From: Rickettsiales bacterium
GTDB taxonomy: Bacteria; Pseudomonadota; Alphaproteobacteria; Rickettsiales; SXRF01
Direction of reading: 5' to 3'
Length of the DNA: 64,000 bases
Assembly: GCA_947459535.1 (NCBI GenBank)
Contig: CANHDY010000001.1
Location: 4,653-68,652, forward strand
Part shown: piece by piece, positions 4,169 to 43,878 of the stretch
Layout of the letters: every line of letters begins with the position of its first letter
Numbering within the stretch: the stretch's first letter is position 1
The notes under the pieces: model-generated
Told to the model about the DNA's origin: nothing
Seen by the model: the letters and a program-made list of their open reading frames with translations, nothing else
Database searches by the model: none
Program-made: the position numbers and the translations under genes

Positions 4169-5499
4169 CAGGCAGCCGCTCTGTCTTCGTGCCACACTGC
4201 ATGGCGCAGGCGCCAGCCGCCCTGATCATACTCCCACAGGTGCGGCGAACGGAACTGATCGCACAGCGCCATGAAATAATCCTTATCCATGATCGGCTGA
4301 TCAAAACAGCGCGATGCCACCGGAAACTCATTCTCCGGAAGGCTGAGATAGCGCCATAATTCATCCGCAAACCGATCCGGAAATTCGTGGTCAAAGCGCT
4401 TCACCAGCGCAACGCCCTCCTCGCGGGTAATGTCGCCGGAGCGGATTTCCTGCGCGGCATCATACGTCGCGCGGCCAATACCGAACTTAATGCCCGTTGT
4501 GTAGTAATGCAGATCATCGATGCGGTCATCAATGCTGTTATATTTGCTGTAAGTGCCCGGCGTGCGTTCGGGCGATGCCTGAAAACCGCCATGCTCAACC
4601 GCGTAATAATAGCAGCTCTGCGGGTGCCATTTCAGATAATAGCCAAGATAGTGCACCTCGATTTTTTTCTGTTTAATCTGCTCAGGATCCGCGGGAAGAT
4701 ACGGCTGCAGATCATTATCATCGAGCCCGAAATCTGATTTCAGCGAAGCGACAGAAACGCCGCCTAGGTGAATCTTGCTTTGGTCGCTGGCGGCAAAATA
4801 GTTCCAATCACGACGTGATTGTCCGGCATCGGCGATAGGGTTGCCATATTCTGCTTCATTCTCACCATAGATCACCAGTGGAATATCATGCAGCGCAGCC
4901 ATCTTCGGCGCCAGATTCTTCTGCCCAAGAATAAACGGTTGGAACGGGTGCAGCAACACATCCACCGCCAGCCGTGTCAGCAGCCTGTGCACACGGCCGT
5001 TAGGGGTCATCAGATAATTGTCGAACCCGGCATGGATCCAGCTTTGAAAATTCTGCCAGCCCCAGCTGGTGTAGATATGCGGCGCCCAGGTGCAGGTGAG
5101 CGGATGCATGCCATAGCGATGTTTGAGAATATGCGCAGCGTAAAAGCTGTCCTTGCCGCCAGAACCCGGCACCAGACAATCATACCCGCCATCATGACGA
5201 CGAAATCGGTCGCACAGCTCGCGCAGCTCGCGGTCGCGCGCTTCCCAGTCAATCGTCTGGCGTTTGCGTTCACTCAAACGGCAGGCATCACAAACGCCCT
5301 GCTCATCAAAATGAATGGTCGCCTTTTTGCTTTCTATGGTGTGAGAAAATTCAACCGCTGAGTTCGGCCGCTGGTTGGAAATCACGCAGCGCTGGCAGAA
5401 CGCCACATGCCCGGGCAGGCCATATTTGGCCTCGCGGGAGGTGGCAGCTGAAGCAAATCGGCTATAGTCAACAGGTTTGGGTCGGGGGATACGCATCAT
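4168..5499 (-). CDS. N-acetyl sugar amidotransferase (PP-loop; PseA/WbpG-like)
   Basis: PP-loop 'SGGKDS' and N-terminal CxxC pairs. Translationally coupled to the HisF/HisH paralogs. Confidence 0.75.
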   Translation of the reverse strand: MMRIPRPKPVDYSRFASAATSREAKYGLPGHVAFCQRCVISNQRPNSAVEFSHTIESKKATIHFDEQGVCDACRLSERKRQTIDWEARDRELRELCDRFRRHDGGYDCLVPGSGGKDSFYAAHILKHRYGMHPLTCTWAPHIYTSWGWQNFQSWIHAGFDNYLMTPNGRVHRLLTRLAVDVLLHPFQPFILGQKNLAPKMAALHDIPLVIYGENEAEYGNPIADAGQSRRDWNYFAASDQSKIHLGGVSVASLKSDFGLDDNDLQPYLPADPEQIKQKKIEVHYLGYYLKWHPQSCYYYAVEHGGFQASPERTPGTYSKYNSIDDRIDDLHYYTTGIKFGIGRATYDAAQEIRSGDITREEGVALVKRFDHEFPDRFADELWRYLSLPENEFPVASRCFDQPIMDKDYFMALCDQFRSPHLWEYDQGGWRLRHAVWHEDRAAA

Positions 5500-10902: not shown

Positions 10903-12055
10903 AATTCTTGCGGCAACTCTTAAGGTGCTGGGCGAAAGCCCGCGCCCCCATGCGCTGCATGAGCCACTCTTTGCCGGCAATGAAAAAGCCTATGTTGCGT
11001 CCTGTATTGATGAAGGTTGGGTATCATCGGTTGGCAGCTTTGTGGATCGCTTCGAGCGCGAACTGGCGGCAGCCTGCGGCGCGACCCATGCGGTAGTGAT
11101 GGTCAATGGCACCTGCGCGCTGCAGGTGGCGCTGCATCACTGCGGTGTGGCGCCGGGCGATGAGGTGCTCATGCCATCGCTCACCTTTGTGGCCACAGCC
11201 AATGCCGCAAGCCATCTTGGCGCAGTGCCGCACTTTGTGGAGGTGGAGGAAACATCGCTCGGTATTTGCCCAGAAGCGCTGCGGCGCCATCTTGCGCGCG
11301 TTGCCACCACTCAGGCCGGCACCACCATCAACCGCCTCACCGGCCGCCCGCTTCGGGCGCTGATTCCGGTAGATGTGTTTGGTCATCCCTGCCAGCTGGC
11401 AGCGCTGAGACAGGTTGCCGAGGAGTTTTCACTGGCACTGATTGAGGATGCGACCGAAGCGCTGGGCAGCCAGCGTGCGGGCACGCCGGTCGGCAATTCG
11501 GGCGTGGCTGTGCTCAGCTTCAACGGTAATAAAATCATCACCACTGGTGGCGGCGGCGCCATTTTGCTGGAAGATGAAGCCAGTTATCGGCGCATCAAGC
11601 ATCTCACCACCACTGCTAAACAACCGCACCGCTGGGCCTTTGATCACGATGCTGTGGCGTGGAATTACCGCCTGCCGAACCTCAATGCCGCGCTGGGTGT
11701 CGCGCAGCTTGAGCAGCTGCCGCGTTTTGTTGCCGCCAAGCGTTTGCTTGCTGAGCGCTACATTCAGCAGTTTGAAAATGTGCATGGCGTGCGTATTCTG
11801 AAAGAGCCATCAGGCACCAGCAGCAACTACTGGCTGGTGTCATTGCTGCTGGATGAAGCCTCTGGCGAAACGCGCGATGCATGCCTCGCCCAGCTGCATG
11901 ATGAGGGCATTCTCGCCCGCCCGGTCTGGACACCGCTGCACCAGCTCGCCATCTATCAGTCCTGCCCGCGCGATCAGCTCACACTCACCGAATCACTCCA
12001 CCAGCGTCTTATCAGCCTGCCCTCCAGCGCGAAATATGGATTTGCCTATGTCTAG
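10880..12055 (+). CDS. DegT/DnrJ/EryC1 aminotransferase (LegC-like)
   Basis: 'LHEPLF...YV..CI..GWVSS', 'AVLSFNGNKIITTGGGG'. Start set at the internal ATG at 10880. Confidence 0.85.
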   Translation: MSRATPSEILAATLKVLGESPRPHALHEPLFAGNEKAYVASCIDEGWVSSVGSFVDRFERELAAACGATHAVVMVNGTCALQVALHHCGVAPGDEVLMPSLTFVATANAASHLGAVPHFVEVEETSLGICPEALRRHLARVATTQAGTTINRLTGRPLRALIPVDVFGHPCQLAALRQVAEEFSLALIEDATEALGSQRAGTPVGNSGVAVLSFNGNKIITTGGGGAILLEDEASYRRIKHLTTTAKQPHRWAFDHDAVAWNYRLPNLNAALGVAQLEQLPRFVAAKRLLAERYIQQFENVHGVRILKEPSGTSSNYWLVSLLLDEASGETRDACLAQLHDEGILARPVWTPLHQLAIYQSCPRDQLTLTESLHQRLISLPSSAKYGFAYV

Positions 12056-14416: not shown

Positions 14417-15148
14417 CTACTGGTTTACAATAATCTTTATTGTTCTTGCCTGCCCTAAAAGCCCATCATAGCACCATAGCCTGCCCGAAAGCGACTGGCC
14501 GATGCCAAGCAGCTCCTTGATGGCTTCCAGCGCCTGCATGCTGCCGAGCATGCCAGCAAGCGGGCCGGCAATACCTTCCTGCGCGCAAGTAACCTCGCGC
14601 TGGGGCATCTCATGCACCAGATCGCGGTAGCCGGGGTGCGGCGCGCCAAAGTAGGGTTTAAAGGTGGAAAGCTGCGCTTCAAAACCGCTAATAGCGGCAG
14701 AGATCAGCGGCTTTTTTTCTGCCTCGCAGCTATCGGCCACCACAAACCGCGTGGCAAAATTATCCGAGCCATCCAGCACCACATCAAACTCCCGCACCAA
14801 TTCGCGCGCATTCTCCGCGTGGATGCGGCGCGGAAAAAGCGTCAGTTCCACATCGGGATTCAGCTCATTCACGCGATCCGCCGCCGCCTCGATCTTCAGC
14901 CGCCCCAAATCCCCCATCTCATACATCACCTGCCGCTGCAAATTGGAAAGCTCCACACGGTCATGCTCGCAGATGCCAATATGCCCAATGCCTGCTGCCG
15001 CCAGATAGGAAATCGCCGCGCTTCCTAGCCCGCCCGCGCCAATCACCAGCGCCGATGAAGCAAGCAGCTTTTCCTGCCCGGCCTCGCCGATCTCCGGCAA
15101 AACAAGGTGGCGCGCATAGCGGCGTTTTTGATCGTCGGTGAGTGGCAT
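14417..15148 (-). CDS. moeB: ThiF/MoeB/HesA-family adenylyltransferase
   Basis: 'RYARHL.LPEIG..GQ', 'VIGAGGLGS', 'SNLQRQ'. Confidence 0.8.
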   Translation of the reverse strand: MPLTDDQKRRYARHLVLPEIGEAGQEKLLASSALVIGAGGLGSAAISYLAAAGIGHIGICEHDRVELSNLQRQVMYEMGDLGRLKIEAAADRVNELNPDVELTLFPRRIHAENARELVREFDVVLDGSDNFATRFVVADSCEAEKKPLISAAISGFEAQLSTFKPYFGAPHPGYRDLVHEMPQREVTCAQEGIAGPLAGMLGSMQALEAIKELLGIGQSLSGRLWCYDGLLGQARTIKIIVNQ

Positions 15149-15233
15149 AGGTTTCGTAGGTTGCGAAGGTTACGAAGGTTGCGTAAGCTAAACCTACGAA
15201 ACTTACGAAACATACGCAACCTCCGTAACCTCC
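15149..15233. repeat. nonamer array inverted repeat: ~4x GGTTNCGNA then ~5x TNCGNAACC
   Basis: Read directly. Fills the whole spacer between the divergent start codons at 15148 and 15236. Confidence 0.9.
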
Positions 15234-15235
15234 CA

Positions 15236-15754
15236 ATGCCCTACCGCTTCACCCTTCTCTACCTGCTGCTTATTCCGCTGGTAAACTGGGCATTTTCCTG
15301 GACACCGCTCGTCGCGCTGCCGGACGGCGGCATGTGGTCGCCTTTTTCGATTGCAGTGGGGCTGATTCTGGTGGTGCGTGATTTCGCCCAGCGCGAGATC
15401 GGGCAGTATATCTTCATCCCGCTCATCATCGGGGTGGCGATCTCGTTTCTGATGGCGCCGCCGGAAATCGCCGCCGCTAGCGGCATTGCATTTTTCGTCA
15501 GCGAGCTGGTGGACTGGGCGCTTTACACCTTCACCAAAAAACCGCTTTCCACCCGTGTGATGATCTCCAGCCTCGCCAGCGCGCCGGTCGATAGCATCAT
15601 CTACTTATCTGGTGCAAATATGGCCATTCCCGGCCTCTTCAGCTGGTGGACACTGGGCACCATGATCATAAGCAAATTATTGGGCGCGTATGTAGTGTAT
15701 CGCATACTGAGGAAAAGAGAGCGCTCCTCGTCATTCCCCGAATTTCGCCAGTAG
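15236..15754 (+). CDS. VUT-family (YhhQ/DUF165-like) membrane protein
   Basis: Polytopic profile with 'VVRDFAQREIG' and 'APVDSIIY'. Start set at ATG 15236; the ORF-track N-terminus is a translated repeat. Confidence 0.6.
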   Translation: MPYRFTLLYLLLIPLVNWAFSWTPLVALPDGGMWSPFSIAVGLILVVRDFAQREIGQYIFIPLIIGVAISFLMAPPEIAAASGIAFFVSELVDWALYTFTKKPLSTRVMISSLASAPVDSIIYLSGANMAIPGLFSWWTLGTMIISKLLGAYVVYRILRKRERSSSFPEFRQ

Positions 15755-15770
15755 GTGAAATTATAGGGGA

Positions 15771-15879
15771 ATCCATCCAGAAATGTCAGCAGACATTTCT
15801 GGGACGCAAAAGGTCTACTGACCTTTTGCTATTCTGGATCCCGGATAAATTTTTTTACTAAAAAAATTTCCGGGATGAC
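15771..15879. repeat. composite GTCAT/ATCCAG...CTGGAT/ATGAC palindromic element (MITE-like) with two internal GTC..GAC hairpins
   Basis: atccatccag + hairpins at 15777-15802 and 15806-15829 + ctggatcccggataaattttttt..aaaaaaatttccgggatgac. Confidence 0.75.
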
Positions 15880-17689: not shown

Positions 17690-18924
17690 GATAGTATTTC
17701 CTTCACCAGCCTCTCAGCCACTTGGGTTTTACTCTTCTTCGGCCATGGGTGCTGGCCATCTTTGGAAATGAATATCACCCGATTGTCATCATCACCAAAC
17801 ACTTTACCGCCGGAAACATCGTTGGCAAGCACCCAATCAGCGCCCTTGGCGTGATATTTCTTAGCCGCATGGCTTGCAAGCTTCTCGGTTTCTGCCGCAA
17901 AACCAACCACCAGGCGCGGGCGCTTCGTTTTGTGCTGCGCCACGCTTTTTAAAATATCCGGGTTTTCCTCAAGCTCCAGCGCCGGTTTTTTCCCCGTCTG
18001 TTTTTTGATTTTCTGCGCGGCTGGTTTCACATGCCAGTCCCCCACTGCGGCGGCAAACACCGCCACATCCACCGGAAGCAGCCTGTGCACCGCCTCATGC
18101 ATCTCGCGCGCTGTGGTCACATGCACGACCGAAACACCCGCAGGATCAGCAAGCTGCGTCGGCCCCGAAACCAGCGTCACCTTCACACCCACCTTGGCAA
18201 GCGCCGCCGCAATCGCATGCCCCTGCTTGCCGCTGGAGCGATTGGCAATATAGCGCACCGGATCAATCGGTTCATGCGTCGGGCCAGAGGTGACGAGAGC
18301 GGTGATACTCTTTGACCCCCTCTCCCTTTCAGGGAGAGGGTTGGGGTGAGGGTTATGTCTTTTACCCCCCTCACCCTGCCCTCTCCCCGCAGGGGAGAGG
18401 GTTCTAAGCACCACTTCCACAATCTCCTGCGGCTCGGCCATACGCCCGGGGCCTTCTTCGCCGCAGGCCAGCATGCCGACACCCGGCTCGATCACTTCCG
18501 CGCCGTCAGCCTTGAGCTGCGCCACGTTGCGCTGCGTGGCGGGGTGGCGCCACATCTGCGTGTTCATCGCTGGTGCTACGAGCAGTTTTTTATTGTTAGC
18601 AAGCAGCGTGGCGGTTGCCATATCATCGGCAATCCCATGCACCATCTTGGCGATAATATCGGCAGTTGCAGGTGCCACGAGCAGCAAATCCGTTTCGCGT
18701 GAGAAACGAATATGCCACATGTCCTTCTTTTCCTTGGGCGAGAATAAATCCGTGGAAACGGGATTGCCCGAAAGCTTTTCCAGTTCTTTCACATTCACAA
18801 ATTCGCTGCCGCCGCGCGTGACAATGCAGTGCACACCAATCTTCTTTTGACGCAGCAGGCTAATAAGCGCCGGCGCCTTAATCGCCGCAATCGAACCGCT
18901 GATGATGAGGGTAATGGAGGGCAT
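17674..18924 (-). CDS. coaBC: bifunctional phosphopantothenoylcysteine decarboxylase/synthetase
   Basis: 'ISGSIAAIK', 'PAMN..M', 'VTSGPTHEPIDPVRYIANRSSGKQG'. Start set at 'MPSITLII'; upstream codons are a translated repeat. Confidence 0.9.
   Translation of the reverse strand: MPSITLIISGSIAAIKAPALISLLRQKKIGVHCIVTRGGSEFVNVKELEKLSGNPVSTDLFSPKEKKDMWHIRFSRETDLLLVAPATADIIAKMVHGIADDMATATLLANNKKLLVAPAMNTQMWRHPATQRNVAQLKADGAEVIEPGVGMLACGEEGPGRMAEPQEIVEVVLRTLSPAGRGQGEGGKRHNPHPNPLPERERGSKSITALVTSGPTHEPIDPVRYIANRSSGKQGHAIAAALAKVGVKVTLVSGPTQLADPAGVSVVHVTTAREMHEAVHRLLPVDVAVFAAAVGDWHVKPAAQKIKKQTGKKPALELEENPDILKSVAQHKTKRPRLVVGFAAETEKLASHAAKKYHAKGADWVLANDVSGGKVFGDDDNRVIFISKDGQHPWPKKSKTQVAERLVKEILSSLRA
18316..18403. 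repeat. G/C-rich tripartite palindromic element, family A (CCCTCTCCC..GGGAGAGGG / GGGGTGAGGG..CCCTCACCC / CCCTCTCCCC..GGGGAGAGGG)
   Basis: Three consecutive hairpins read directly. Lies inside coaBC. Confidence 0.85.
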
Positions 18925-19009: not shown

Positions 19010-21763
19010 TCAAGATGACAACTGTTTTAGTTTATACAGTATCTCCAGCGCTTCTTTTGGCGAGAGTGTATCGGGGTTGATGCTTTCTAACTCTGCCAAA
19101 ACCGTCTCTCCTTTTGCGGGAGGTGGCTGATTGGCGGGGGTAGAAGAATAGCTAAAGAGCGGCAAGCTCGCCGGCACCTCCTGCGAATGTTCTGCCTCAA
19201 GCTGGCGCAGAATCTCGCTGGCGCGGCTTATCACCGGCTCAGGCAGCCCCGCCAGCTTCGCCACGTGAATACCGTAGGAACGATCCGCCGTGCCGCTCGT
19301 CACCTCATGCAGAAACACCAGCTCGCCCTTCCATTCCTTCACTTTCATCGTGTAGCAGGCAAGCGCTGGCAGCGTGCCCGTCAGCTGGGTCAGCTCGTGG
19401 TAGTGGGTGGCAAAAAGTGCGCGCGCTTTGGTCACATGGTGCAGATGCTCCACCACCGCCCACGCGATGGAAAGACCATCAAACGTCGCGGTGCCACGCC
19501 CAATTTCATCAAGGATAATCAGCGAGCGCGAGGTGGCCTGATTCAAAATGGTGGCGGTTTCCACCATCTCCACCATGAAGGTGGATTGCCCGCGCGCCAA
19601 ATCATCCGCCGCGCCCACGCGTGAAAACAGCTTATCCACGATGCCAACACGCGCCGATTCCGCCGGCACAAAACCGCCCATCTGCGCCATGATGGCGATC
19701 AACGCATTCTGGCGCAGGAAGGTTGATTTACCGGCCATGTTCGGGCCGGTGAGCAACCACAAATGCTTATCGGGTGCAAGGCTGGTATCATTGCCGATGA
19801 AAGGTTGCTGGCTGGTTTTGGCCAGCGCCGCCTCCACCACCGGATGACGCCCCTTTCGAATCTCAAACTCCAGCGATCCGTTGATTTCCGGGCGAACATA
19901 ACGGCGTTTGGCGGCAAGCTCAGCCAACGCCGCCACCACATCAAGATGCGCCAGCGCACGTGCGGACGCCACCACGCGCGGCGCGGCGTCAAGCACCTCA
20001 GCGACCAGCTCCGCAAAAATCTCAAGCTCCAGTTTCAGCGCCTTATCACCCGCTTCGCTGATGCTGCGCTCCAGCTCAGAAAGCTCCACGGTGGTGTAGC
20101 GCAGATTATTCGCCAGCGTCTGGCGGTGGATAAAATCCTGCGTCACCTTACTCTGGTGCGCCTGCGTAATTTCAATGTAATAACCAAGAATGTTGTTATA
20201 GCGAATCTTCAGTGTATTGATGCCGGTGGCGTCAATGTAGCGCTGCTGCAGCGCCGCGATGCGCCGCGCGCCCTCATGCTTCAGCGAGCGCAGCTCGTCG
20301 AGCGCCGCATGGTAGCCGCTGGCGATAAAATCACCGTCGCGCGCAAACAGCCCCGCCTCCGGTTTGATCGCGGACTTAAGCCGCTGGATGAGTGTTTCAT
20401 GGCCGCCCAGCTCGCCGCGCTTCTGCGCCAGCTCCTCTGGTAGTGCTGACGAGTCCTGCAGCTCCAGTGCCATGCGAATCTGCTGCGCGGCGTCCAGCGC
20501 CTGAGCAATGGAGAGTAAATCCCTTGGCCCACCGCGCGCAAGCGACAGCCGTGCCAGTGCCCGCTCCATATCTGGCGCATTCTTGAGCTGTTCGCGCACG
20601 GCGCTGCGAAGGCTGGCTTCATCTTTAAACAGCATCACCTGCTCCTGCCGGCGAAGAATCGCCTGTGGGTCGGTCAGCGGCGCGCATAGCCAGCTGGCCA
20701 GCAGCCTTGCGCCGCTGGCGGTGACGGTCTCATCCATTACCCAAAACAGGCTACCCCGGCGCTCGGCGGATAAGGTCTGCATCAGCTCAAGGTTGCGCAG
20801 GCTCGCCGCATCAATCTGCATGTGGCTGGCTGGCAGCTGACGCGTGGGTGCATCCAGACGCGGCATCGCGGTTTTCTGCGTGAGGCGCACATAATCCAGC
20901 AGCACGCCACACGCCGCCAGCTCGCCCGGCATGAAATCCCCAAACACACTCAGCGTCGCCACGGCGTAATACTCGGTCATGATGCGCGTAGCGCGCGCCG
21001 GATCAAACAGATGGGCGGGCAGCCGCGTCAGCTGGCTCTGCCACATCGGCTGCCATGCACTTTGCTCGCCGTCTGCCAGCAGAATCTCGCGCGGGGCAAT
21101 GCGCGAAAGTTCGGCGGCGATCTGCTCCGGCGCCACCATCGCCACACGAAACTCACCGGTGGTGATGTCCAGCCAGGCAAGGCTTGCCGACGCCTGCCCG
21201 CGAGCTGGCGCCACCAACGCGCATAAATACTGCGAACTGCGGCCATCAAGCAGCGTGTCTTCAGTAATCGTTCCCGGCGTCACAATACGCACCACATCGC
21301 GCGCCACCACTGCTTTGTAACCGCGTTTTTTGGCTTCTTCCGGTGTTTCCAGCTGCTCGGCAATGGCCACGCGCAGCCCGGCGCGGATCAGCTTTTCAAG
21401 GTAAGTATCATAGGCATGCACCGGCACGCCGCACATCGGAATATCCTCGCCGGCATGCTTGCCACGCTTGGTCAGCGCAATATCCAGTACCTGCGACGCC
21501 ACCGCTGCATCCTCAAAAAACAGCTCGTAAAAATCGCCCATGCGATAAAACAGCAGACAGTCCGGATGCGCCGCCTTCAGCGCCAGATATTGCGCCATGG
21601 CGGGCGTCGTTTTTTCCTCCCCCCCTTGAGGGAGGAGGTTAGGAGGGGGGGTGACAACTGTTCTGCCTGAGCGTATGTCACCCCCCACCCCGCCCTCCCC
21701 CTCAAGGGGGGAGGGAGAAATATCTTCCAAAACAACTGCTTGTTTAGCCATACCCATTGTCAC
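19010..21763 (-). CDS. mutS: DNA mismatch repair protein MutS
   Basis: 'TPAMAQYL..K....[14 protein letters not shown]', 'GPNMAGKST', 'DEIGRGT'. The N-terminus contains a repeat element, so the start is uncertain. Confidence 0.92.
21616..21716. repeat. tripartite palindromic element, family B (C7/G7 type)
   Basis: cctcccccccttgagggaggagg / gggggggtgaca..tgtcacccccc / ccctccccctcaagggggggaggg. Lies inside the mutS 5' region. Confidence 0.85.
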
Positions 21764-22494: not shown

Positions 22495-22584
22495 CACGTG
22501 GTTATCGTGGCTCGTGGTTATCGTGGTTGAATAAAATTTTCACGACAATCACGATAGTCACGACAATCACGGCCATCACGAGCC
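22495..22584. repeat. CGTGGTT-unit array (arm 1), AT loop, CACGA-unit array (arm 2)
   Basis: cgtggttat cgtggct cgtggttat cgtggttg / aataaaatttt / cacgacaat cacgatagt cacgacaat cacggccat cacgagcc. Confidence 0.9.
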
Positions 22585-25470: not shown

Positions 25471-25572
25471 ACCTGCGTCAAGCAACAAAGATTCTCGAAA
25501 GGCATGCAGCACATTTACCGCTGCCCCGGAAGAGGAAATATTTTCTCATCCCATTGATATAATGGATAAAAT

Positions 25573-25588
25573 TGTTTCACGTGAAACA
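25573..25588. repeat. palindrome TGTTTCACGTGAAACA (copy 1)
   Basis: Perfect 16-bp palindrome with a CACGTG core. Confidence 0.9.
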
Positions 25589-25605
25589 TTTTTCTTGCCC
25601 TCAAT

Positions 25606-25689
25606 CCCCTCTCCCCTCCGAGGAGAGGGTTAGGGTGAGGGGGACAGCGGTTTAGGCCTCTCCCTTCCAGGGAGAGGGTTAGCGGAGGG
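25606..25689. repeat. two family A elements in tandem
   Basis: cccctctcccctccgaggagagggttagggtgaggggg and cctctcccttccagggagagggttagcggaggg. Confidence 0.8.
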
Positions 25690-25698
25690 TTATCTCAA

Positions 25699-25718
25699 AT
25701 TGTTTCACGTGAAACAAT
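25699..25718. repeat. palindrome ATTGTTTCACGTGAAACAAT (copy 2)
   Basis: Perfect 20-bp palindrome. Shares AAATTGTTTCACGTGAAACA with copy 1. Confidence 0.9.
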
Positions 25719-25819
25719 TTTGACAGTGAATGTCACAAATCATCAATACAATTTCACCGACTTTTCACATTCCTTGCCATCGCAGCCTGCTATAATGGGC
25801 GGTATAAAGGAGATACCCC

Positions 25820-30718: not shown

Positions 30719-30784
30719 AATGACAGTATGGTGACACTTATAAGACAGGATAATGACAGTATGGTGACACTTATAAGACAGGAT
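30719..30784. repeat. perfect 2 x 33-bp tandem repeat
   Basis: aatgacagtatggtgacacttataagacaggat occurs twice. Lies in the AT-rich region upstream of the 463-aa orphan. Confidence 0.95.
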
Positions 30785-30817: not shown

Positions 30818-30857
30818 CTGGATCCCCGGATCGCGCTTACGCGCGTCCGAGGATGAC
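30818..30857. repeat. half element CTGGAT...GGATGAC
   Basis: ctggatccccggatcgcgcttacgcgcgtccgaggatgac. Confidence 0.7.
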
Positions 30858-32530: not shown

Positions 32531-33361
32531 TTAGTTCGTTGCTTTGGCTTCGGCCGGCTTGAGTGCTGCCGGGTCGATGCCCGCTTTTTTCTGCTGAGCG
32601 CTCACCCAGCTTGCAAATTCTTCCTTGCTCACCACGCGCACCTCAATCGGCATGAACCCATGACCCACGCCGCACAGCTCCGAGCACTGACCATAGAAGG
32701 TGCCAGTTCTGGTGGCTTTAAACCATGTTTCATTCAGGCGGCCGGGCATGGCGTCGCGCTTCACACCAAAAGCAGGCATCGCCCAGGAATGAATCACATC
32801 CGCACCGGTCAGCAGCACGCGCACCTTGGTGTCTACCGGCACCACCACCGGATTATCCACCGAAAGAAGGCGCACCTGTCCTTCTTTAATGTCCTTATCT
32901 GGAATCATGCGCGACTCGAATTCAAAACCGCCGTGGCTCGGGTACTTATATCCCCAGTACCATTGATAGCCGGTCACTTTCAGATCCATCTCCGCCTGCT
33001 CGGTATCTTCCATAAAGTAATGCACACGCAGGCTGGGGATCGCAATCGCCACCAGGATGATGATCGGCACCACCGTCCAGATAATTTCGAGCTTGGTATT
33101 GTGGGCGGTTTTGCTGGGAACGGGGTTGGCCTTGCGGTTAAACTTCACGATAATAACCACCAGCAGCGCCAGCACAAACAGCGTGATGGCAGTAATGATG
33201 ACCAGCAGCAGGTTGTGATCGGCGTTCAGGCGCTCCATCACCGGCGTCGCGGCCTGCTGGAAGCCAAGCTGCCATGGCTCAGCAAGGCCAATGGTTTCCG
33301 CCATTGCGGGAGCAGAGAAACATGCGACAAGTGAAGCTAAAATAAAGCGAAGCTTAGTCAT
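32531..33361 (-). CDS. ctaC: cytochrome c oxidase subunit II
   Basis: Signal peptide, and the CuA motif 'HSWAMP...CSELCGVGHGFM'. Confidence 0.95.
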   Translation of the reverse strand: MTKLRFILASLVACFSAPAMAETIGLAEPWQLGFQQAATPVMERLNADHNLLLVIITAITLFVLALLVVIIVKFNRKANPVPSKTAHNTKLEIIWTVVPIIILVAIAIPSLRVHYFMEDTEQAEMDLKVTGYQWYWGYKYPSHGGFEFESRMIPDKDIKEGQVRLLSVDNPVVVPVDTKVRVLLTGADVIHSWAMPAFGVKRDAMPGRLNETWFKATRTGTFYGQCSELCGVGHGFMPIEVRVVSKEEFASWVSAQQKKAGIDPAALKPAEAKATN

Positions 33362-33478
33362 GATAACCTTATCAAATGTAATGAAATGAGAGCCAGCGAC
33401 TATGTAACGCGCTTTGTACTTGCTTGCAACCGTTTTTCACGGCAATCTTAGCATATTGCAGCCAATAAATCTAGACTG

Positions 33479-34924
33479 ATGAGTATGAATAGCACCACCC
33501 CGGAATCGCTTTTCTTTTCAGGAACCAGCCTCGACCAGGTTCGGGCGCAGCAGCTAGTCTCGTCCGCCCTTGACGGCATGGATGACGGCGAGCTGTTTTT
33601 GGAATACATCCAGTCGGAATCGCTGGCTTTTGATGATGGCCGCCTGAAAAATGCCAGCTTTAATACCGCGCAGGGCTTTGGGCTTCGCAGCGTACTCGGC
33701 GAGGCCACCGCCTATGCCCACGCCTCGGAAATCAGCGAAGCAGCGCTTGCCCGCGCTGCCCAGACCGTACGCGCCGTGAACCATGGCCAGAAACCCGTTC
33801 ATGCCAGCATGGCGCCCGCCTTTGGCACCAACCGCAAGCTCTACCGCGATATCAACCCGCTGAAGGAAGTGGCGTTTGAGGTGAAAGTAGCGCTGCTGCA
33901 GGAGATTGATGCTTACCTGCGCGGCAAGGATGCGCGTGTGAAGCAGGTTTCCGCCTCCATTTCGGGGCAGTGGCAGGCGGTGCATATTATGAAAGCAGAC
34001 GGCAGCGCCGCAAGCGACATCCGCCCGCTGGTGCGCGTGAATGTCAGCGTGATTGTCGAAGAACATGGCCGCCGCGAATCCGGCTCCAGCGGCGCGGGCG
34101 GCCGCGTGGCTTATGCACAATATATAGGCGAAGGCGGCTGGAAAAAGCTGGCGGATGAAGCGCTGCGGCAAGCGCTGGTGAACCTTGAGTCCATCCCCGC
34201 CCCGGCCGGCGAAATGCCGGTGGTGCTGGGGAATAGCTGGTGCGGCGTTTTGCTGCATGAAGCGATCGGCCACGGGCTGGAAGGTGATTTCAACCGCAAA
34301 GGAACCTCGGCATTTGCCGGGCTTATGGGCAAACAGGTCGCAAGTAAAGGCGTCACCATCGTCGATGATGGCACGATTGTTGATAAGCGCGGCTCGCTCT
34401 CGATTGATGATGAAGGCACCCCAACCTCACGGACCACGCTAATTGAGGATGGCATCCTTGTTGGCTATATTCAGGACAGGCTAAATGCCCGCCTGATGAA
34501 CATGCGCGCCACCGGCAATGGCCGCCGCGAAAGCTTCGCTCACCAGCCCATGCCGCGCATGACCAACACCTATATGTTAAATGGTGAAGGCACACGCGAA
34601 TCGATGATCGCCTCGGTGAAGCGCGGTATTTATGCGGCGCATTTTGGCGGCGGCCAGGTGGATATCACCTCCGGCAAATTCGTGTTTTCTGCTTCCGAAG
34701 CCTACCTGATTGAAAACGGCAAAATCACCGCGCCGCTGAAAGGCGCAACCCTGATTGGCAACGGCCCCGACTGTCTCACCAAAATTCGCGCCATCGGGAA
34801 TGACACGGCGCTGGATGATGGCGTCGGCACCTGCGGCAAAGCCGGCCAGTCTGTGCCCGTCGGCGTCGGCCAGCCCTCCCTTCTCATTGATGCAATGACG
34901 GTGGGTGGGACGGCTGTCGGATGA
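33479..34924 (+). CDS. tldD: metalloprotease TldD
   Basis: 'HEAIGHGLEGD', 'GNGRRESF', 'VGTCGKAGQ'. Confidence 0.92.
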   Translation: MSMNSTTPESLFFSGTSLDQVRAQQLVSSALDGMDDGELFLEYIQSESLAFDDGRLKNASFNTAQGFGLRSVLGEATAYAHASEISEAALARAAQTVRAVNHGQKPVHASMAPAFGTNRKLYRDINPLKEVAFEVKVALLQEIDAYLRGKDARVKQVSASISGQWQAVHIMKADGSAASDIRPLVRVNVSVIVEEHGRRESGSSGAGGRVAYAQYIGEGGWKKLADEALRQALVNLESIPAPAGEMPVVLGNSWCGVLLHEAIGHGLEGDFNRKGTSAFAGLMGKQVASKGVTIVDDGTIVDKRGSLSIDDEGTPTSRTTLIEDGILVGYIQDRLNARLMNMRATGNGRRESFAHQPMPRMTNTYMLNGEGTRESMIASVKRGIYAAHFGGGQVDITSGKFVFSASEAYLIENGKITAPLKGATLIGNGPDCLTKIRAIGNDTALDDGVGTCGKAGQSVPVGVGQPSLLIDAMTVGGTAVG

Positions 34925-35016
34925 CGGCTGACGGCTCACGAAAAAATCAGAAATTCATAGAAAACCTAGTCGATTCCGCCCATTTTCTTACTTGTCATCC
35001 GCCATCCGTCATCCGT
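34909..35016. repeat. CGGATGA/CGGCTGA heptamer arm (34909-34940) and TCATCCG arm (34993-35016), ~52-nt spacer
   Basis: Read directly. Arm 1 overlaps the last tldD codons and the stop codon. Confidence 0.8.
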
Positions 35017-35133
35017 TTATGACAGTTCCATGACAGTTCGGTTACGGAACCGTGAAGATTGCATCCACGGGCGTTTTAGCATTTGTGCTCTGTTTGGTTT
35101 TCGATAAGATGAGTACATAGAGGAACACAAATT

Positions 35134-35319
35134 ATGAGTCTCGATATGCCACACCTTCCCCTTGATCAGCTGACCTTCTCCAATGTGGATAGTGCATTGG
35201 TAGCCGGTGGCACCAACCTTGCTATCAGCCAAGCTTCAGTCGGTGGCGGCATGGATGCAACAACCACTTTTGCACAAAATATTGGCATGGCTCGCCGGGA
35301 TGATGGTTTAGGCATCTAA
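35134..35319 (+). CDS. small hypothetical protein (61 aa), monocistronic
   Basis: GAGGA lies 9-10 nt upstream of the start. Followed by a strong intrinsic terminator at 35341-35370. Confidence 0.5.
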   Translation: MSLDMPHLPLDQLTFSNVDSALVAGGTNLAISQASVGGGMDATTTFAQNIGMARRDDGLGI

Positions 35320-35340
35320 CCTATTCAGCTACATGTAACA

Positions 35341-35370
35341 AAAAAGCGGCCTTCGAGCCGCTTTTTTTGT
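35341..35370 (+). terminator. rho-independent terminator
   Basis: aaaaAGCGGCcttcgaGCCGCTttttttt: GC stem followed by a T-run. Confidence 0.75.
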
Positions 35371-35381
35371 GTTTACGTGCC

Positions 35382-35470
35382 GTCATGCCCGTGAAAACGG
35401 GCATCCAGCGCGCCGCGTCTGCGGCGAAATGGTATTAAGTAGACTGGATTCCCGCTTTCGCGGGAATGAC
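35382..35470. repeat. composite element: GTCATGCCCGTGAAAACGGGCATCCAG - spacer hairpin - CTGGATTCCCGCTTTCGCGGGAATGAC
   Basis: Read directly. The spacer holds the hairpin cgccgc-gtct-gcggcg. Confidence 0.8.
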
Positions 35471-35577
35471 GAAATAAATAACCCTCTCAGAGCACCCAGA
35501 AAACGCTTTTCATTTACATTCCATGCTTTTTCAGTATAGTATCAATCTATTGCGCACAAAACGGGCGATAGACTAGC

Positions 35578-35934
35578 ATGTCCACAAAATGGAGCTCCCA
35601 GATACTCGGTCGCGGCTCGGTCAATTTCGATGACCTGCTGAAGGACGAGTATTCCATTATTCTGCTGCAGGGCAAGAACACCTTCGGCGACATGATCTAT
35701 TGCTACGTGAAAGTGACCCTACCTAATATGCAGAAACTTCAGGCTGCGCTGAAAATGGGGGGCAATTTCAGTCCCAGTGATTTCGGCGAGGTGATCGCTG
35801 CAGCCAAAGGCCAGCCCAGCGCCGAGGTGAAAGCGGAGATCGGCCGGCTTTACCCGATGCTCGACACCCCGCAAGTCATGCATGAGGCCGTTGCCGCAGC
35901 AGCCTCTGAAAAAAAAGCGTGGGATGAATTCTAA
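35578..35934 (+). CDS. hypothetical protein (118 aa)
   Basis: Intact ORF with coding-like composition. No clear SD and no family recognised. Confidence 0.45.
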   Translation: MSTKWSSQILGRGSVNFDDLLKDEYSIILLQGKNTFGDMIYCYVKVTLPNMQKLQAALKMGGNFSPSDFGEVIAAAKGQPSAEVKAEIGRLYPMLDTPQVMHEAVAAAASEKKAWDEF

Positions 35935-35935
35935 T

Positions 35936-36022
35936 CGGATGACGGATGACGGTTGTCGGATGACGAAGCATCTGCTTTAGTGTTTTTTGTCATCTGTCAT
36001 CCGTCATCTGTCATCCGCCACC
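35936..36022. repeat. CGGATGA heptamer arm, loop, GTCATCY heptamer arm
   Basis: cggatga cggatga cggttgt cggatga ... gtcatct gtcatcc gtcatct gtcatcc gccacc, then the lgt ATG. Confidence 0.9.
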
Positions 36023-36850
36023 ATGCTCACCTTCCCCAATATCGACCCCATCGCGCTTGAGCTAGGACCGCTTGCCATTCGCTGGTATTCGCTGGCTTAT
36101 ATTGCAGGGATATTGCTGGGCTGGTGGATTATCGTGCGCGAGCTGGCCGCCCGCCCGCTGGAAAACTTAAATAAAAAAGCCATCGATGACATGATCGTCT
36201 GGGCGATTATCGGCATCATGCTAGGCGGCAGGCTGGGCTACTGCCTGTTTTATAAACCATCTTACTACCTCGAAAATCCGCTGGAAATCCTTCAGCTCTG
36301 GCAGGGCGGCATGTCGTTCCATGGCGGCTTTGCCGGCTTTGTGCTCGCTTTTTATCTTTTCTGCCGCAAATACAACGTACGCTTCCTCGCGCTGATGGAT
36401 CTGATGGCCTGCGTCGCGCCGATTGGCATCGGGCTTGGCCGCCTCGCCAACTTCATCAATGGTGAACTTTATGGCCGCGTTACCGATTCACCGCTCGGCA
36501 TGATCTTCCCACACAGTGACGGCCAGCCGCGCCACCCCAGCCAGCTTTATGAGGCTTTTTCCGAAGGGCTGATTTTATTCATGATCATGATGTGCTTGCT
36601 GAAATTGTCCACACTCCGCGACCGCGCGGGAGCCTTGTCCGGCCTGTTTTGTATCGGTTACGGAACTGCCCGCATTATTTGTGAGTTTTTCCGCGAGCCG
36701 GATGCTTATCTGGGTTTCCTCTTTGCCGGTGCCACCATGGGGCAGCTGCTGAGTCTGCCGATGATTTTCATCGGTATATATCTGATATGGAAATCATCCC
36801 CCTCACCCGCCGCTTCGCGTCCTCCCTCTCCCCGTCGGGGAGAGGGTTAG
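36023..36850 (+). CDS. lgt: prolipoprotein diacylglyceryl transferase
   Basis: 'IRWYSLAYI' and 'GGMSFHGG'. The last ~17 codons and the stop codon lie inside a palindromic element. Confidence 0.9.
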   Translation: MLTFPNIDPIALELGPLAIRWYSLAYIAGILLGWWIIVRELAARPLENLNKKAIDDMIVWAIIGIMLGGRLGYCLFYKPSYYLENPLEILQLWQGGMSFHGGFAGFVLAFYLFCRKYNVRFLALMDLMACVAPIGIGLGRLANFINGELYGRVTDSPLGMIFPHSDGQPRHPSQLYEAFSEGLILFMIMMCLLKLSTLRDRAGALSGLFCIGYGTARIICEFFREPDAYLGFLFAGATMGQLLSLPMIFIGIYLIWKSSPSPAASRPPSPRRGEG

Positions 36851-36860
36851 GGTGAGGGGG
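36798..36860. repeat. family A element (nested hairpins)
   Basis: cccccctcaccc...ccctctccccgtcggggagagggttagggtgaggggg, spanning the lgt 3' end. Confidence 0.85.
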
Positions 36861-36865
36861 TAAAT

Positions 36866-37942
36866 ATGAACGATTTACTTTCCATCATCAAGGAACGCAT
36901 CGCTGAAAACGGGCCGATTCCGGTTTCGGAATATATGAGCCTGTGCCTTGCCCATCCTGAGCATGGCTATTACATGAAACGCGACCCGCTGGGCAAGGAT
37001 GGCGATTTTATTACGTCACCGGAAATCTCTCAGGTTTTTGGGGAATTGCTGGGTCTTTGGATCGCAAACCAGTGGGAAAAGCAAGGAAAGCCAAACGCCA
37101 CCCTGCTTGAAATGGGCCCCGGGCGCGGCACACTGATGAATGACGCCCTGCGCGCCACTAAAAAAATTAAGGGATTGCATGATGCGGTCTCGGTTCGTCT
37201 GCTGGAAATCAGCCCGGCGCTGAAGCAAAAACAATGGCAGCTGCTGGCGGGCAAGCACCATGATCTCGGCTGGCTGGAATCACTCGATTCACTGCCGCTA
37301 GAGCCCCTTTTTGTGGTGGCCAATGAGTTTTTTGACGCCCTGCCAATCAGGCAGTTTGTATGGCAAAATGAGAAGTGGCATGAGCGTTATGTTGGAATGG
37401 ACGGCGATCAACTTAAGTTCGTCATCGCGAGTGAGCGAAGCGAGCGTGGCGATCCAGACTGGATTGCTTCACCTTCGGCTCGCAATGACGGTGAGATTAA
37501 AGAAATTTGTGAACCAGCAACTGAAATCATTTCAAAGATCTCAAGCCATATTAAAACCTATGGCGGCGCGGCGCTCATCATTGATTACGGCTACAATGAA
37601 GGCAACGGCGACACGCTCCAGGCCATGCGTCGCCACCAGTATTTTGAAATATTTTCAAAGCCCGGTAGCGCCGACATCACCGCCCATGTCGATTTCGCCG
37701 CCCTCAAAGAAGCGGCAGAAAAAGCAGGCGCCAAAGTATTTGGCGCGACGCCGCAAGGGCGTTTCCTGATGAAGATCGGCGCCGGCCAGCGCACCCAGAA
37801 ACTCTGCGGAAGCGCCTCGCAGGAACAAAGCAGAGAGCTGATCTCGGGTCTCGATCGCCTCGCTTCCCCGGAAAAAATGGGCGAACTATTCAAAGTGCTG
37901 GCGATATTGCCGCCAGATGCCATGCATGCGGAGGGTTTTTAA
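36866..37942 (+). CDS. MidA/NDUFAF7-family SAM-dependent methyltransferase (DUF185)
   Basis: 'DFITSPEISQVFGEL', 'EMGPGRGTLM'. Carries a 69-bp palindromic element in frame. Confidence 0.8.
   Translation: MNDLLSIIKERIAENGPIPVSEYMSLCLAHPEHGYYMKRDPLGKDGDFITSPEISQVFGELLGLWIANQWEKQGKPNATLLEMGPGRGTLMNDALRATKKIKGLHDAVSVRLLEISPALKQKQWQLLAGKHHDLGWLESLDSLPLEPLFVVANEFFDALPIRQFVWQNEKWHERYVGMDGDQLKFVIASERSERGDPDWIASPSARNDGEIKEICEPATEIISKISSHIKTYGGAALIIDYGYNEGNGDTLQAMRRHQYFEIFSKPGSADITAHVDFAALKEAAEKAGAKVFGATPQGRFLMKIGAGQRTQKLCGSASQEQSRELISGLDRLASPEKMGELFKVLAILPPDAMHAEGF
37421..37489. repeat. compact composite element GTCATCGCGAG...ATCCAGaCTGGAT...CTCGCAATGAC
   Basis: 69 bp. Lies inside the midA-like CDS. 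Confidence 0.85.
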
Positions 37943-38781
37943 TGCTCTTTCCCCTCACCTCTTCCAATCTCGACTTACCACACATCCGCCACGGCTTTTT
38001 CAGCCGCAGTGGCGGCGTGAGTCAGGGTATCTACGCATCGCTGAACTGCGGCCCCGGCTCCGGCGATAATCTGGAACATGTGGGCAAAAACCGCCAGCGC
38101 GTAAGCAGCCACATGGGTGCACCGCTCATCACCTGCCATCAGGTTCACAGCAGCGAGGTGGTGACGGTTGAGATGCCATGGCAGCAAGGGCAGGCACCGC
38201 AGGCCGATGCGATGGTAACGAATCAGCCCGGCATCGCGCTGGGTATCCTGACGGCGGATTGCCTGCCGGTACTTTTTGCTGATCGCAGCCAGCGCATCAT
38301 CGGCGCGGCGCATGCCGGCTGGAAGGGTGCCTTCACCGGCGTACTGGAAAACACCATTGCCGCCATGAAAGCCCTTGGCGCCAGCGACATTGCCTGCGCC
38401 ATTGGCCCCGCCATTTCGCAGCCCTCTTATGAAGTCGGCCCGGAATTTTATGAGCGTTTCACGAAAATATACTCCCCCAGCTTGCGGGGGGAGATAGAGG
38501 GGGGTGATCATGCAACACTGCAAACTCACCCCCCCTACCCCCCCGCAAGCGGGGGGGTAATAAACAATGACCAATTCTTCATCCCCTCTTCCCGCGAAGG
38601 CCATCACCTCTTCGACCTCAAGGGCTATGCGCTGGCGCGGCTCAAAAATGCGGGCGTTGAGGCGGAACTTCTTGACCGCGATACCTGTTTTGAAGATGAT
38701 AGCTTCTTCAGCTTCCGCCGCGCCACCTTAATCGGCGAACGTGGCTATGGCAGGCAGGTTTCGGTAATATCATTAGTATAG
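37942..38781 (+). CDS. pgeF: peptidoglycan editing factor PgeF (YfiH/laccase-domain family)
   Basis: 'QVHSSEVV', 'ADAMVT', 'TADCLPV', 'HAGWKG'. Carries an ~87-bp element in frame. Confidence 0.85.
   Translation: MLFPLTSSNLDLPHIRHGFFSRSGGVSQGIYASLNCGPGSGDNLEHVGKNRQRVSSHMGAPLITCHQVHSSEVVTVEMPWQQGQAPQADAMVTNQPGIALGILTADCLPVLFADRSQRIIGAAHAGWKGAFTGVLENTIAAMKALGASDIACAIGPAISQPSYEVGPEFYERFTKIYSPSLRGEIEGGDHATLQTHPPYPPASGGVINNDQFFIPSSREGHHLFDLKGYALARLKNAGVEAELLDRDTCFEDDSFFSFRRATLIGERGYGRQVSVISLV
38472..38558. repeat. tripartite palindromic element, family B
   Basis: ctcccccagcttgcggggggag / ggggggtga..tcacccccc / acccccccgcaagcgggggggt. Lies inside pgeF. Confidence 0.85.
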
Positions 38782-38783
38782 CT

Positions 38784-38897
38784 GTCATCCCCGCGAAAGC
38801 GGAGATCCAGTTATAAACTTGACGAAAAATGTCTACTGACATTTTTCTTCTCTGGATCCCGGATAAATTTTTCTACTGAAAAATTTTCCGGGATGAC
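38784..38897. repeat. composite element with GTCTACTGAC hairpin
   Basis: gtcatccccgcgaaagcggagatccag + gaaaaatgtctactgacatttttc + ctggatcccggataaattttt..aaaattttccgggatgac. Confidence 0.85.
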
Positions 38898-38913
38898 AAC
38901 AAAGGATAATTCT

Positions 38914-39786
38914 ATGACTCTCATTCCCTTTGACGATCGTGATGGATGGATCTGGTTTAACGGCACGATGGTGCCGTGGCGCGATGCCAAGGTTCATGTG
39001 CTGACACATGGCCTGCATTATGGTTCCTGCGTGTTCGAAGGGGAGCGGGCGTATGGCGGCAAAATTTTCAAAAGCCGCGAGCATGCTGAGCGACTATATA
39101 AATCCGGTGAACTGCTTGGCTTCAAAATCCCCTTTGATGTTGAAACGCTGATGCAGGCGAAAGAAGAAGTGATTTCGAAAAATAATCTGGTGGATGCGTA
39201 CCTGCGCCCGGTGGCGTGGCGTGGCAGCGAAATGATGGCCGTTTCAGCGCAGCAGACAAAAATCCATGTCGCCATCGCCGCATGGCAGTGGCCGAGCTAT
39301 TTCGGCAAAGAAGCGAAAGAAAAAGGCCTGCGCCTGCAGGTAGCGCGCTGGGCACGCCCCGCGCCCAACACCGCCCCCACCGCCAGCAAAGCGGCCGGAC
39401 TTTACATGATCTGCACCATCAGCAAACACGAAGCCGAGGCCGCCGGCTACAATGATGCGCTGATGTATGATTATCGCGGCTTTGTTGCGGAAGCCACCGG
39501 CGCGAATGTGTTTTTCATGATGGACGGCAAGCTCCACACCCCGAAACCGGATTGCTTCCTGGACGGCATCACGCGCCGCACGGTGATCGATCTCGCGCGG
39601 CAGCATAAGATCGAGGTCGTTGAGCGCCATATCAAGCCGGACGAGCTGGCGCATGCGACCGAGGCCTTCCTCACCGGCAGCGCCGCCGAGGTCATGCCCA
39701 TTGGCAGCATCGAAGGGCAGCATTTCGTTGTCGGCGAGGCAACCAAGATGTTGATGGGGGCTTATCAGCAAGCTGTAAGCAATTAA
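38914..39786 (+). CDS. ilvE: branched-chain amino acid aminotransferase
   Basis: 'HGLHYGSCVFEGERAY'. AAGGA lies upstream of ATG 38914. The earlier ATG at 38893 lies in a repeat terminus. Confidence 0.9.
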   Translation: MTLIPFDDRDGWIWFNGTMVPWRDAKVHVLTHGLHYGSCVFEGERAYGGKIFKSREHAERLYKSGELLGFKIPFDVETLMQAKEEVISKNNLVDAYLRPVAWRGSEMMAVSAQQTKIHVAIAAWQWPSYFGKEAKEKGLRLQVARWARPAPNTAPTASKAAGLYMICTISKHEAEAAGYNDALMYDYRGFVAEATGANVFFMMDGKLHTPKPDCFLDGITRRTVIDLARQHKIEVVERHIKPDELAHATEAFLTGSAAEVMPIGSIEGQHFVVGEATKMLMGAYQQAVSN

Positions 39787-40190
39787 CCCACCTCTTGCCC
39801 GCCGTTTCTTTCAGTAAAAACTTCTGTCATTCTTTTCAGCTCGGCTTTTGTATGTTCGCCCATTTCCGGCTTGATCGCGTTATTAATACCTAGAGATTGT
39901 TTTATTAAATCTTGATCAACATTATTTTTATTCATGATTCCATAGGTTTCCATCGTTGCTAGTGCAGCGACAAGATCCTCTTTATTATATTGACTATATA
40001 GCTTGGAATCTCCGCTTTGAATCGCTTTTAGAATTAACTCTGCAGCAAAAATCCTTCTTTTTTCTTCTTCCGTATAATGATTCATGTATTTTTGATTGTT
40101 TAGCTCGTCTATCAGATTAGCATTTTCTCGATAAGCCGCTGCATTAATCAAAAACCCATCAATATCTTCTCTTTTAAACTGCGTTCCCAT
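39783..40190 (-). CDS. hypothetical protein, AT-rich orphan (135 aa)
   Basis: GGAG lies 5 nt upstream of the ATG at 40190. Visibly AT-rich. No family recognised. Confidence 0.45.
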   Translation of the reverse strand: MGTQFKREDIDGFLINAAAYRENANLIDELNNQKYMNHYTEEEKRRIFAAELILKAIQSGDSKLYSQYNKEDLVAALATMETYGIMNKNNVDQDLIKQSLGINNAIKPEMGEHTKAELKRMTEVFTERNGGQEVG

Positions 40191-43876: not shown

Positions 43877-43878
43877 AC

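Follow-up and report, generated by a model that had tools for sequence, protein, structure and literature searches.

A co-varying hairpin as the inner module of intergenic repeat units that carry predicted Ssn recognition motifs in uncultured alphaproteobacteria

To our knowledge no description of the Ssn nucleases and the SRM hairpins predates 2025, and we know of no role for them outside Neisseria; nor do we know of any function assigned, in more than 20 years, to the inner "RS" parts of NIME-type mosaics. The 28-nt NTS of Neisseria, CGTCATTCCCGCGMAVGCGGGAATCYRG, contains the dRS3 repeat (ATTCCC-N8-GGGAAT) and has been generalised to Ssn-related motifs (SRM) in many bacteria (Chenal et al., 2025, Nat Commun 16:2388, PMC11893778). 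The Ssn proteins are 94-aa GIY-YIG nucleases which bind the SRM as a single-stranded DNA hairpin, not as double-stranded DNA or RNA, and their cut site lies a few nucleotides 5' (upstream) of the motif. The identity of the SRM loop is dispensable for Ssn, extra sequence at the loop position is tolerated, and the motif typically stands on both sides of ssn genes (PMC11893778). The NIMEs, in which dRS3 inverted repeats flank the RS elements, were stated not to be seen outside Neisseria (Bentley et al., 2007, PMC1797815).

The DNA analysed here, referred to as the window, is a 64-kb stretch in which a preliminary description had reported four hairpins sharing the core GTCTACTGAC. All four copies were verified with their coordinates and sequences (cores at 15813, 38831, 46601 and 62090, all on the + strand); dinucleotide-preserving shuffles gave an expected mean of 0.01 copies, and none of 100 shuffles reached four. 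Three of the four are hairpin 1 (HP1) of a larger repeat unit of approximately 79 nt. The same three fall in a 77-nt direct-repeat family (D2), which is matched by a reverse copy at 46504-46580, and in the repeat analysis D2 and the inverted families I1/I2 link the copies as 73-77-nt repeats.

The unit is composed of GACG, HP1, a TWTT linker and a 44-nt long-form SRM (CTGGATCCCG-27 nt-CGGGATGAC). HP1 itself consists of an A-rich arm, GTC, a T-N-C-T loop, GAC and a T-rich arm, while the second half of the unit is a hairpin, ATCCCG/CGGGAT, with an inner hairpin. On the strand which Ssn would read, HP1 lies 3' of the SRM, usually at a spacing of 11 nt. An identical 79-nt geometry is common to 20 units, and a covariance model of the unit recovered 29 full units in 385 kb. 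Units are arranged head-to-head or face a short SRM, GTCATCCCCGCGAAAGCGGGGATCCAG (GTCATCCC..GGGATCCAG), and fill the intergenic gaps. Head-to-head pairs make up the mosaics at 15729-15879 and 46505-46668; that at 38783-38897 is a single unit opposite the short hairpin TGTCATCCCCGCGAAAGCGGAGATCCAG. The modules of the window are the following:

15729-15776, + strand: long-form SRM/NTS-type hairpin of mosaic 1, CGTCATTCCCC...GGGGAATCC, overlapping the stop codon of ORF 15107-15754
15777-15802, - strand: HP1 of the inverted partner unit of mosaic 1, GTC-TGCT-GAC, with an 11-bp perfect stem
15806-15829, + strand: HP1 of mosaic 1, the index copy, gcaaaagGTC-TACT-GACcttttgc, with a 10-bp stem
15834-15879, - strand: long-form SRM of mosaic 1, GTCATCCCGG...CCGGGATCCAG, with a loop lengthened into an A/T hairpin whose apex is ACT/AGT
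30818-30857, + strand: solo long-form SRM in reverse orientation, CTGGATCCCCGG...CCGAGGATGAC
35381-35471, no strand assigned: SRM mosaic without HP1, in which short SRMs at 35381-35408 (+) and 35444-35471 (-) stand around the GC-rich hairpin cgccgcGTCTgcggcg at 35411-35426
38783-38810, + strand: short SRM of mosaic 2, TGTCATCCCCGCGAAAGCGGAGATCCAG
38824-38847, + strand: HP1 of mosaic 2, gaaaaatGTC-TACT-GACatttttc, with an orthologous copy in the related contig L028
38852-38897, - strand: long-form SRM of mosaic 2, its inner apex also C-TACT-G on the + strand
43878-43957, - strand: variant SRM pair (stems ATGGC and ATTGCG); the corresponding site of L028 is occupied by an HP1 unit
45818-45844, - strand: solo short SRM, GTCATCCCCGCGAAAGCGGGGATCCTG
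46505-46550, + strand: long-form SRM of the partner unit of mosaic 3
46555-46577, - strand: HP1 of the partner unit of mosaic 3, GTC-TTTT-GAC
46597-46614, + strand: HP1 of mosaic 3, caaaGTC-TACT-GACtttg, with 7 bp of perfect stem and, beyond them, a C.A mismatch
46622-46668, - strand: long-form SRM of mosaic 3, of the TGCTC...CTCCA subtype

Four modules of the window match the published SRM pattern (HGTCWYN(0-2)YYVSBRHN(0-5)WNVSBRGN(0-2)RNCYNB; PMC11893778), and 35444-35471 is the exact Neisseria NTS consensus CGTCATTCCCGCGMAVGCGGGAATCYRG. A strict stem-based scan counted 11 SRM-like sites in the window, where shuffles gave 1.08; at least eight of the 11 are clear SRMs. The long-form modules keep the SRM flanks and the outer stem around a longer loop, and with their 44 nt they fit the reported tolerance of Ssn for extra loop sequence (PMC11893778). 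Judged by their outer stems and by the oriented flanks GTCAT...ATCCAG, the outer hairpins of the mosaics are NTS/SRM motifs, and predicted recognition sites for Ssn. By the same comparison HP1 is not an SRM: on inspection GTCTAC and GTCAGT both fail GTCWY, no C follows the palindrome, and the stem is A/T-rich. The hosts also differ, Ssn having been studied in Neisseria and the present motifs being known, from sequence alone, in uncultured alphaproteobacteria.

A keyword search of Chenal et al. (2025, PMC11893778) revealed no companion hairpin like HP1. In the literature at large neither HP1 nor the apex which it shares with the SRM was found described, matches to the core string being primers and unrelated sequences, and Rfam at gathering thresholds gave no match over the whole window.

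The heptamer GGATGAC/GTCATCC, which forms the SRM 5' arm, also occurs in direct and inverted runs at 34911-34942, 34993-35016, 35936-35967 and 35990-36020. Two small ORFs, 35134-35319 and 35578-35934, are enclosed by these arrays. The latter (118 aa) was considered as a candidate ssn gene and rejected, having neither a Pfam match nor a GIY-YIG motif.

As in the NIMEs, inverted repeats of the 20-bp type bracket short intergenic modules of lower GC content (Bentley et al., 2007, PMC1797815), and the content of the mosaics turns over at syntenic sites. Unlike the NIMEs, each mosaic holds only one or two units, with no long arrays in the window or in the related loci, and in place of more than 100 RS families there is one conserved family of inner hairpins, usually at a fixed spacing. 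The literal dRS3, ATTCCC-N8-GGGAAT, is present in one window module only (35444-35471), the others being ATCCCC/ATCCCG variants, and the inner segments measure 30-70 nt versus 50-150 bp in the NIMEs. With the REP/BIME/REPIN sequences the mosaics share the intergenic palindromic inverted doublets, the folding as single-stranded DNA hairpins and the compensatory stem changes; as with RAYT, a small single-copy nuclease gene is flanked by the repeats. The enzyme encoded beside the repeats is, however, of the GIY-YIG type and not HUH/Y1 as in the IS200/IS605-like REP/RAYT system, no RAYT gene was noticed, and no GTAG is conserved at the foot of the stem, this tetranucleotide being limited to the loop, where the reverse strand carries it.

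Inside the window the perfect stem of HP1, including GTC/GAC, amounts to 10 bp at 15806-15829 and 38824-38847 and to 7 bp at 46597-46614. Of the four copies to which mutually compensating flanks had been attributed, that at 62084-62105 can be extended perfectly by 1 bp only and needs a 1-nt bulge. Among the further GTC/GAC hairpins which had been listed as related, those at 15777-15802 and 46555-46577 read GTC-TGCT-GAC and GTC-TTTT-GAC on the - strand and are HP1 in the inverted partner units; cgccgcGTCTgcggcg is a different, GC-rich hairpin. With the partners counted, three units of the window lie on the + strand and two on the - strand, so that the apparent bias (four of four cores on the + strand) is gone. 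The core had also been called invariant, which is true of the window only: the 28 related HP1 copies display five loops (TACT 15, TGCT 9, TCCT 2, TTCT 1 and TTTT 1), with the consensus T-N-C-T and the apex C-TNCT-G. Of the 28 copies, 25 to 27 carry the most frequent form at each of the three GTC/GAC pairs.

The covariation of the stem, on the other hand, is real, and a statistical check on these 28 copies showed a structure conserved with compensatory changes. Paired cells make up 95.7% of the total, a percentage which is inflated, as the copies are related to one another and both the patterns and the model used to gather them presuppose the hairpin; seven of the ten pairs have changed on both sides. 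Double-sided changes occupy 43 cells, compared with 13.1 in shuffles (none of 500 reached 43) and at most 11 in slid controls, and there is not one G-U pair in 280 cells. For the whole unit 93% of cells are paired and 14 of 27 pairs have changed on both sides. On the unit strand the eight transition-type mismatches of HP1 (in about seven copies) are without exception C.A or A.C, which places G.T wobbles on the strand with the SRM that Ssn could read; helix 2 has no such bias (4 G.T versus 2 A.C). We take this asymmetry as no more than a hint.

The apex C-TNCT-G is not confined to HP1. It recurs 40 nt away as the apex of the inner hairpin of the long SRM, that is, in the extended loop. In 247 kb of DNA from this lineage TNCT/AGNA loops account for 82 of 186 strand-counted perfect C-N4-G hairpins, and every perfect hairpin with a C-TNCT-G apex (41 of 41) lies inside a mosaic unit. 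The hairpins are real and their stems co-vary, but HP1 is the inner module of an intergenic repeat and not the free-standing signal that had been proposed.

One might nevertheless expect a distinct protein, such as a second nuclease, a recombinase or a transposase, to recognise HP1 independently of Ssn, since GTC/GAC and three loop positions (1, 3 and 4) hardly vary, in contrast to the outer stem, which is free to do so. The repetition of the apex in the SRM loop and the existence of one solitary copy away from any SRM are in keeping with such a protein. We consider it unlikely, however, because no candidate gene was found, the 247 kb hold no perfect HP1 hairpin away from SRMs, no GTAG of the HUH/RAYT type is conserved at the stem foot, and the solitary copy is both imperfect and species-specific. 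That copy is situated in a flagellar region with the following features:

62084-62105, + strand: solitary GTCTACTGAC hairpin with a bulged stem and no SRM nearby, between fliS (62175-62633, -) and fliK (60223-62064, -)
62110-62125, - strand: sigma-54-type promoter for fliK, TGGCACGGCGATTGCA, TGGCAC-N5-TTGCA

The fliK ORF carries a Flg_hook domain. Its sigma-54-type promoter is conserved in relatives with 67-76% FliS identity (contigs L141, L144, L146 and L148), and the leader downstream of it differs from one relative to the next, often with a small hairpin of its own. On the usual -24/-12 spacing the +1 of fliK is predicted near 62099, which is the first core base on the - strand; the 5' arm of the hairpin is then probably not transcribed. 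The solitary hairpin had been assigned to the 5' leader of fliK, outside any larger element. While there is indeed no SRM nearby, this copy is the least convincing of the four: situated immediately downstream of the promoter, it straddles the predicted +1, is bulged, and is not conserved, being present in the near-identical L138-L140 and absent from the other four contigs named above. It may be a stray module or a coincidence.

As single-stranded DNA HP1 folds by itself into a hairpin of 7-10 bp, with -5 to -10 kcal/mol (-5.7 kcal/mol for the copy at 62084-62105) and the unit with about -24 kcal/mol (z about -9). The folding of HP1 as RNA, with -9.5 to -16 kcal/mol, is comparable to that of a canonical terminator at 35343-35369 (-14.3 kcal/mol), and raises the question whether HP1 is an intrinsic terminator or a stabiliser of mRNA 3' ends, with its link to the SRM incidental or the mosaic a REP-like transcript-end element. 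Like Rho-independent (bidirectional) terminators, the HP1 elements are palindromic A-tract/stem/T-tract sequences at gene ends. The mosaics end 2-20 nt from ORF ends, in tandem (10), convergent (4) or, once, divergent contexts; in forward orientation HP1 is followed by TATTCT or TTTTCT (TWTTCT), and some MAG copies, with TTTTCT, would pass a T-tract rule. Moreover, in contig L096 the HP1 position is taken by an ordinary terminator-like hairpin with A-tract, GC-stem and T-tract.

Several properties do not suit a terminator. A simple terminator scan flags none of the hairpins at 15777-15829, whose tail has four T in eight; the GC core measures only 3-4 bp, and the conserved loop, with an apex common to the SRM loop, is not needed for termination. 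Between tandem genes about half of the units point with transcription and about half against it, and a unit in reverse lacks a U tract. G-U pairs are lacking altogether, and mosaic 2 precedes the likely start of ilvE by about 17 nt. Altogether we regard an action of HP1 in RNA as improbable, and more so than that of a separate recognition protein, even though the RNA-stable hairpin and its TWTTCT tail may lend HP1 a terminator-like side role.

A near-consensus sigma-70-like promoter, CTGACA-18-TATAAT (11/12), runs from 15789 to 15760 on the - strand, antisense into ORF 15107-15754. It is made up of the HP1 core and the adjacent SRM loop; as a general property of the unit such a promoter was rejected, the spacing not being kept in other units.

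In a genome scan for the core, N11 and CTGGATCCCG, three MAGs of uncultured alphaproteobacteria were the only ones to show this architecture. The outer module alone (CTGGATCCCG-N27-CGGGATGAC) was present at no fewer than 120 metagenome loci from many environments, with very diverse interiors, and HP1 stood upstream in about 10 of the 127 matches listed. The outer module is consequently widespread and HP1 lineage-specific. A search of plasmids with the 116-nt mosaic (blastn) gave no match. In viral contigs the core, N11 and CTGGATCC gave 12 matches, all of a single phage gene family with neither hairpin nor SRM, which we put down to chance multiplied by relatedness. The contigs of the FliS homologues belong to MAGs named "Rickettsiales bacterium", one of which (L138, GCA_964654615.1) is essentially of the same species as the window. 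For the CysK encoded in the window there was no exact match on record.

Contig L028 is syntenic with 32765-45681 of the window at about 85% identity and contains an ortholog (89% identity) of the mosaic at 38783-38897. In this ortholog an A-T pair of the HP1 stem has become C-G in place by a double change, and in the core GAC has become GGT, giving two G.T pairs on the SRM-forward strand. At two other syntenic sites the content differs: the window at 35381-35471 and L028 at about 11030-11130 have SRM pairs with different stems and inner hairpins, and the variant SRM pair at 43878-43957 corresponds to an HP1 unit at 1793-1900 of L028. It follows from the different stems that SRM stems turn over or change in a compensatory manner, and from the retained ortholog and the differing sites together that mosaics are both kept and replaced. 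Double units 79-90% identical to those of the window stand beside unrelated genes in five further contigs (L014, L031, L044, L108 and L114).

This rapid turnover between relatives might suggest that HP1 is functionless "RS"-like filler, its symmetry kept by palindrome copying or gene conversion and not by selection. The RS elements between dRS3 repeats of Neisseria are, after all, many families without known function (PMC1797815), and stem variants seen in the ortholog, such as gcaaaat/attttgc, are also found at other copies, so that conversion could mimic compensation. Filler is difficult to reconcile with the near-invariance of GTC, GAC and T-N-C-T across contigs with unrelated flanking genes, with the 11-nt spacing to the SRM, usually fixed, with the same apex in a second hairpin, or with transition-type mismatches that fall on one strand in eight cases out of eight. 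Its probability we place between those of the two alternatives above, and thus low.

No ssn gene was detected in the 64-kb window (tblastn, E <= 1). Of the 120 metagenome loci listed, which were chosen by SRM pattern only, seven have an ORF of 93-102 aa with a GIY-YIG domain (Pfam PF01541, E 1e-13 to 1e-15) within about 300 nt of an SRM. In contig L014 the order is gatC, SRM, predicted ssn (4532-4810), inverted SRM, gatA, at approximately 3 kb from two HP1 units. Four further predicted ssn homologues (L149-L152) show 82-86% identity and the same bracketing SRMs; in all five contigs the SRMs are inverted and have the stem ATCCCCGC, which is that of the short SRMs of the window. These are IS-like SRM-ssn-SRM cassettes of about 380 nt with a predicted GIY-YIG protein of 93-98 aa:

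L014, 4490-4870: SRM-ssn-SRM cassette
L149, 5597-5970: SRM-ssn-SRM cassette
L150, 3843-4216: SRM-ssn-SRM cassette
L151, 8347-8715: SRM-ssn-SRM cassette
L152, 9967-10343: SRM-ssn-SRM cassette

In L014, L149 and L150 the cassette lies between gatC and gatA, and in the other two contigs it lies elsewhere; altogether three or more different genomic sites are occupied. Their protein belongs to a family with 6862 members at E <= 1e-15 in a protein collection; PDB and NCBIfam gave weak generic GIY-YIG matches only. The cognate nuclease of the SRMs is predicted to be the Ssn-like protein of these cassettes, carried by related contigs. In all five cassettes with inspected flanks HP1 is absent, which implies that Ssn does not need HP1 at its own gene.

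The reading to which we incline, and which we hold to be probable with some reserve, is that the intergenic mosaics are NIME/BIME-like structures built around SRMs, in which HP1 is the accessory, inner part and serves the nuclease site as a structural partner. Replication, repair or DNA uptake would expose the region as a single strand, on which HP1 and the SRM would fold next to each other; HP1 might then stabilise or modulate Ssn, or an associated protein, at that site. Spreading or conversion of the unit would copy HP1 together with its SRM. We infer that HP1 most likely has its role in single-stranded DNA beside the SRM, on account of the mixed orientation of the units, the lack of G-U pairs, the conserved apex and the tether to a site of a nuclease which binds single-stranded DNA only; any effect on Ssn itself would be a further step in the same inference. 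The preliminary description had suggested a protein- or nuclease-recognition hairpin in either DNA or RNA. Its tether to SRM-matching hairpins makes a role for HP1 in single-stranded DNA near a nuclease site plausible, whereas RNA is disfavoured (no G-U in 280 cells, mixed orientation, no Rfam match) and HP1 is itself no SRM. Counting against a partnership with the SRM are the lack of ssn in the window and of HP1 at the five cassettes, and the solitary copy at 62084-62105, with no SRM, is not accounted for by it.

A bolder proposal, no likelier in our view than a separate recognition protein, is that the HP1-SRM unit is a non-autonomous mobile element, analogous to a REPIN or MITE and mobilised via single-stranded DNA by the Ssn which the cassettes encode. 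HP1 and the SRM-loop apex (C-AGNA-G on the strand read by Ssn) would in that event form a second sequence-specific contact for excision, end protection or integration. If true, this would be the first repeat-spreading system driven by a GIY-YIG enzyme, and would provide a function for the "RS" modules of NIME-type mosaics.

Returning to HP1 as an accessory partner of the nuclease site, the outer parts of the mosaics belong to a system known since 2025, and HP1 with its shared apex is a new accessory part. NIME-like mosaics and IS-like SRM-ssn-SRM cassettes are thus seen in uncultured alphaproteobacteria. The regular two-hairpin unit, with its usually fixed spacing and its shared apex, offers a substrate for studying the effects of a neighbouring hairpin on binding and cutting by Ssn or on the spread of repeats.

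On inspection HP1 fitted neither the attC site of an integron nor an IHF site, nor any restriction/methylation motif. A number of other repeats were observed in the window. A perfect 33-nt tandem duplication (AATGACAGTATGGTGACACTTATAAGACAGGAT, two copies, 30719-30784) closely precedes the solo SRM at 30818-30857. A second intergenic palindromic family, CCCTCTCCC..GGGAGAGGGTTAGGGTGAGGG, unrelated to the SRM mosaics, occurs at 18318-18401, 21611-21720, 25607-25694, 36824-36864 and 42967-43062, and resembles the enterobacterial BoxC repeats. Around its members two copies of a 25-nt palindrome, AAAATTGTTTCACGTGAAACATTTT, at 25568-25592 and 25697-25721, lie approximately 100 nt apart and are possibly an operator pair. 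Lastly, the 16-nt repeat GTGGTTATCGTGGCTC is found in tandem at two distant intergenic sites, 22498-22526 and 40875-40919.
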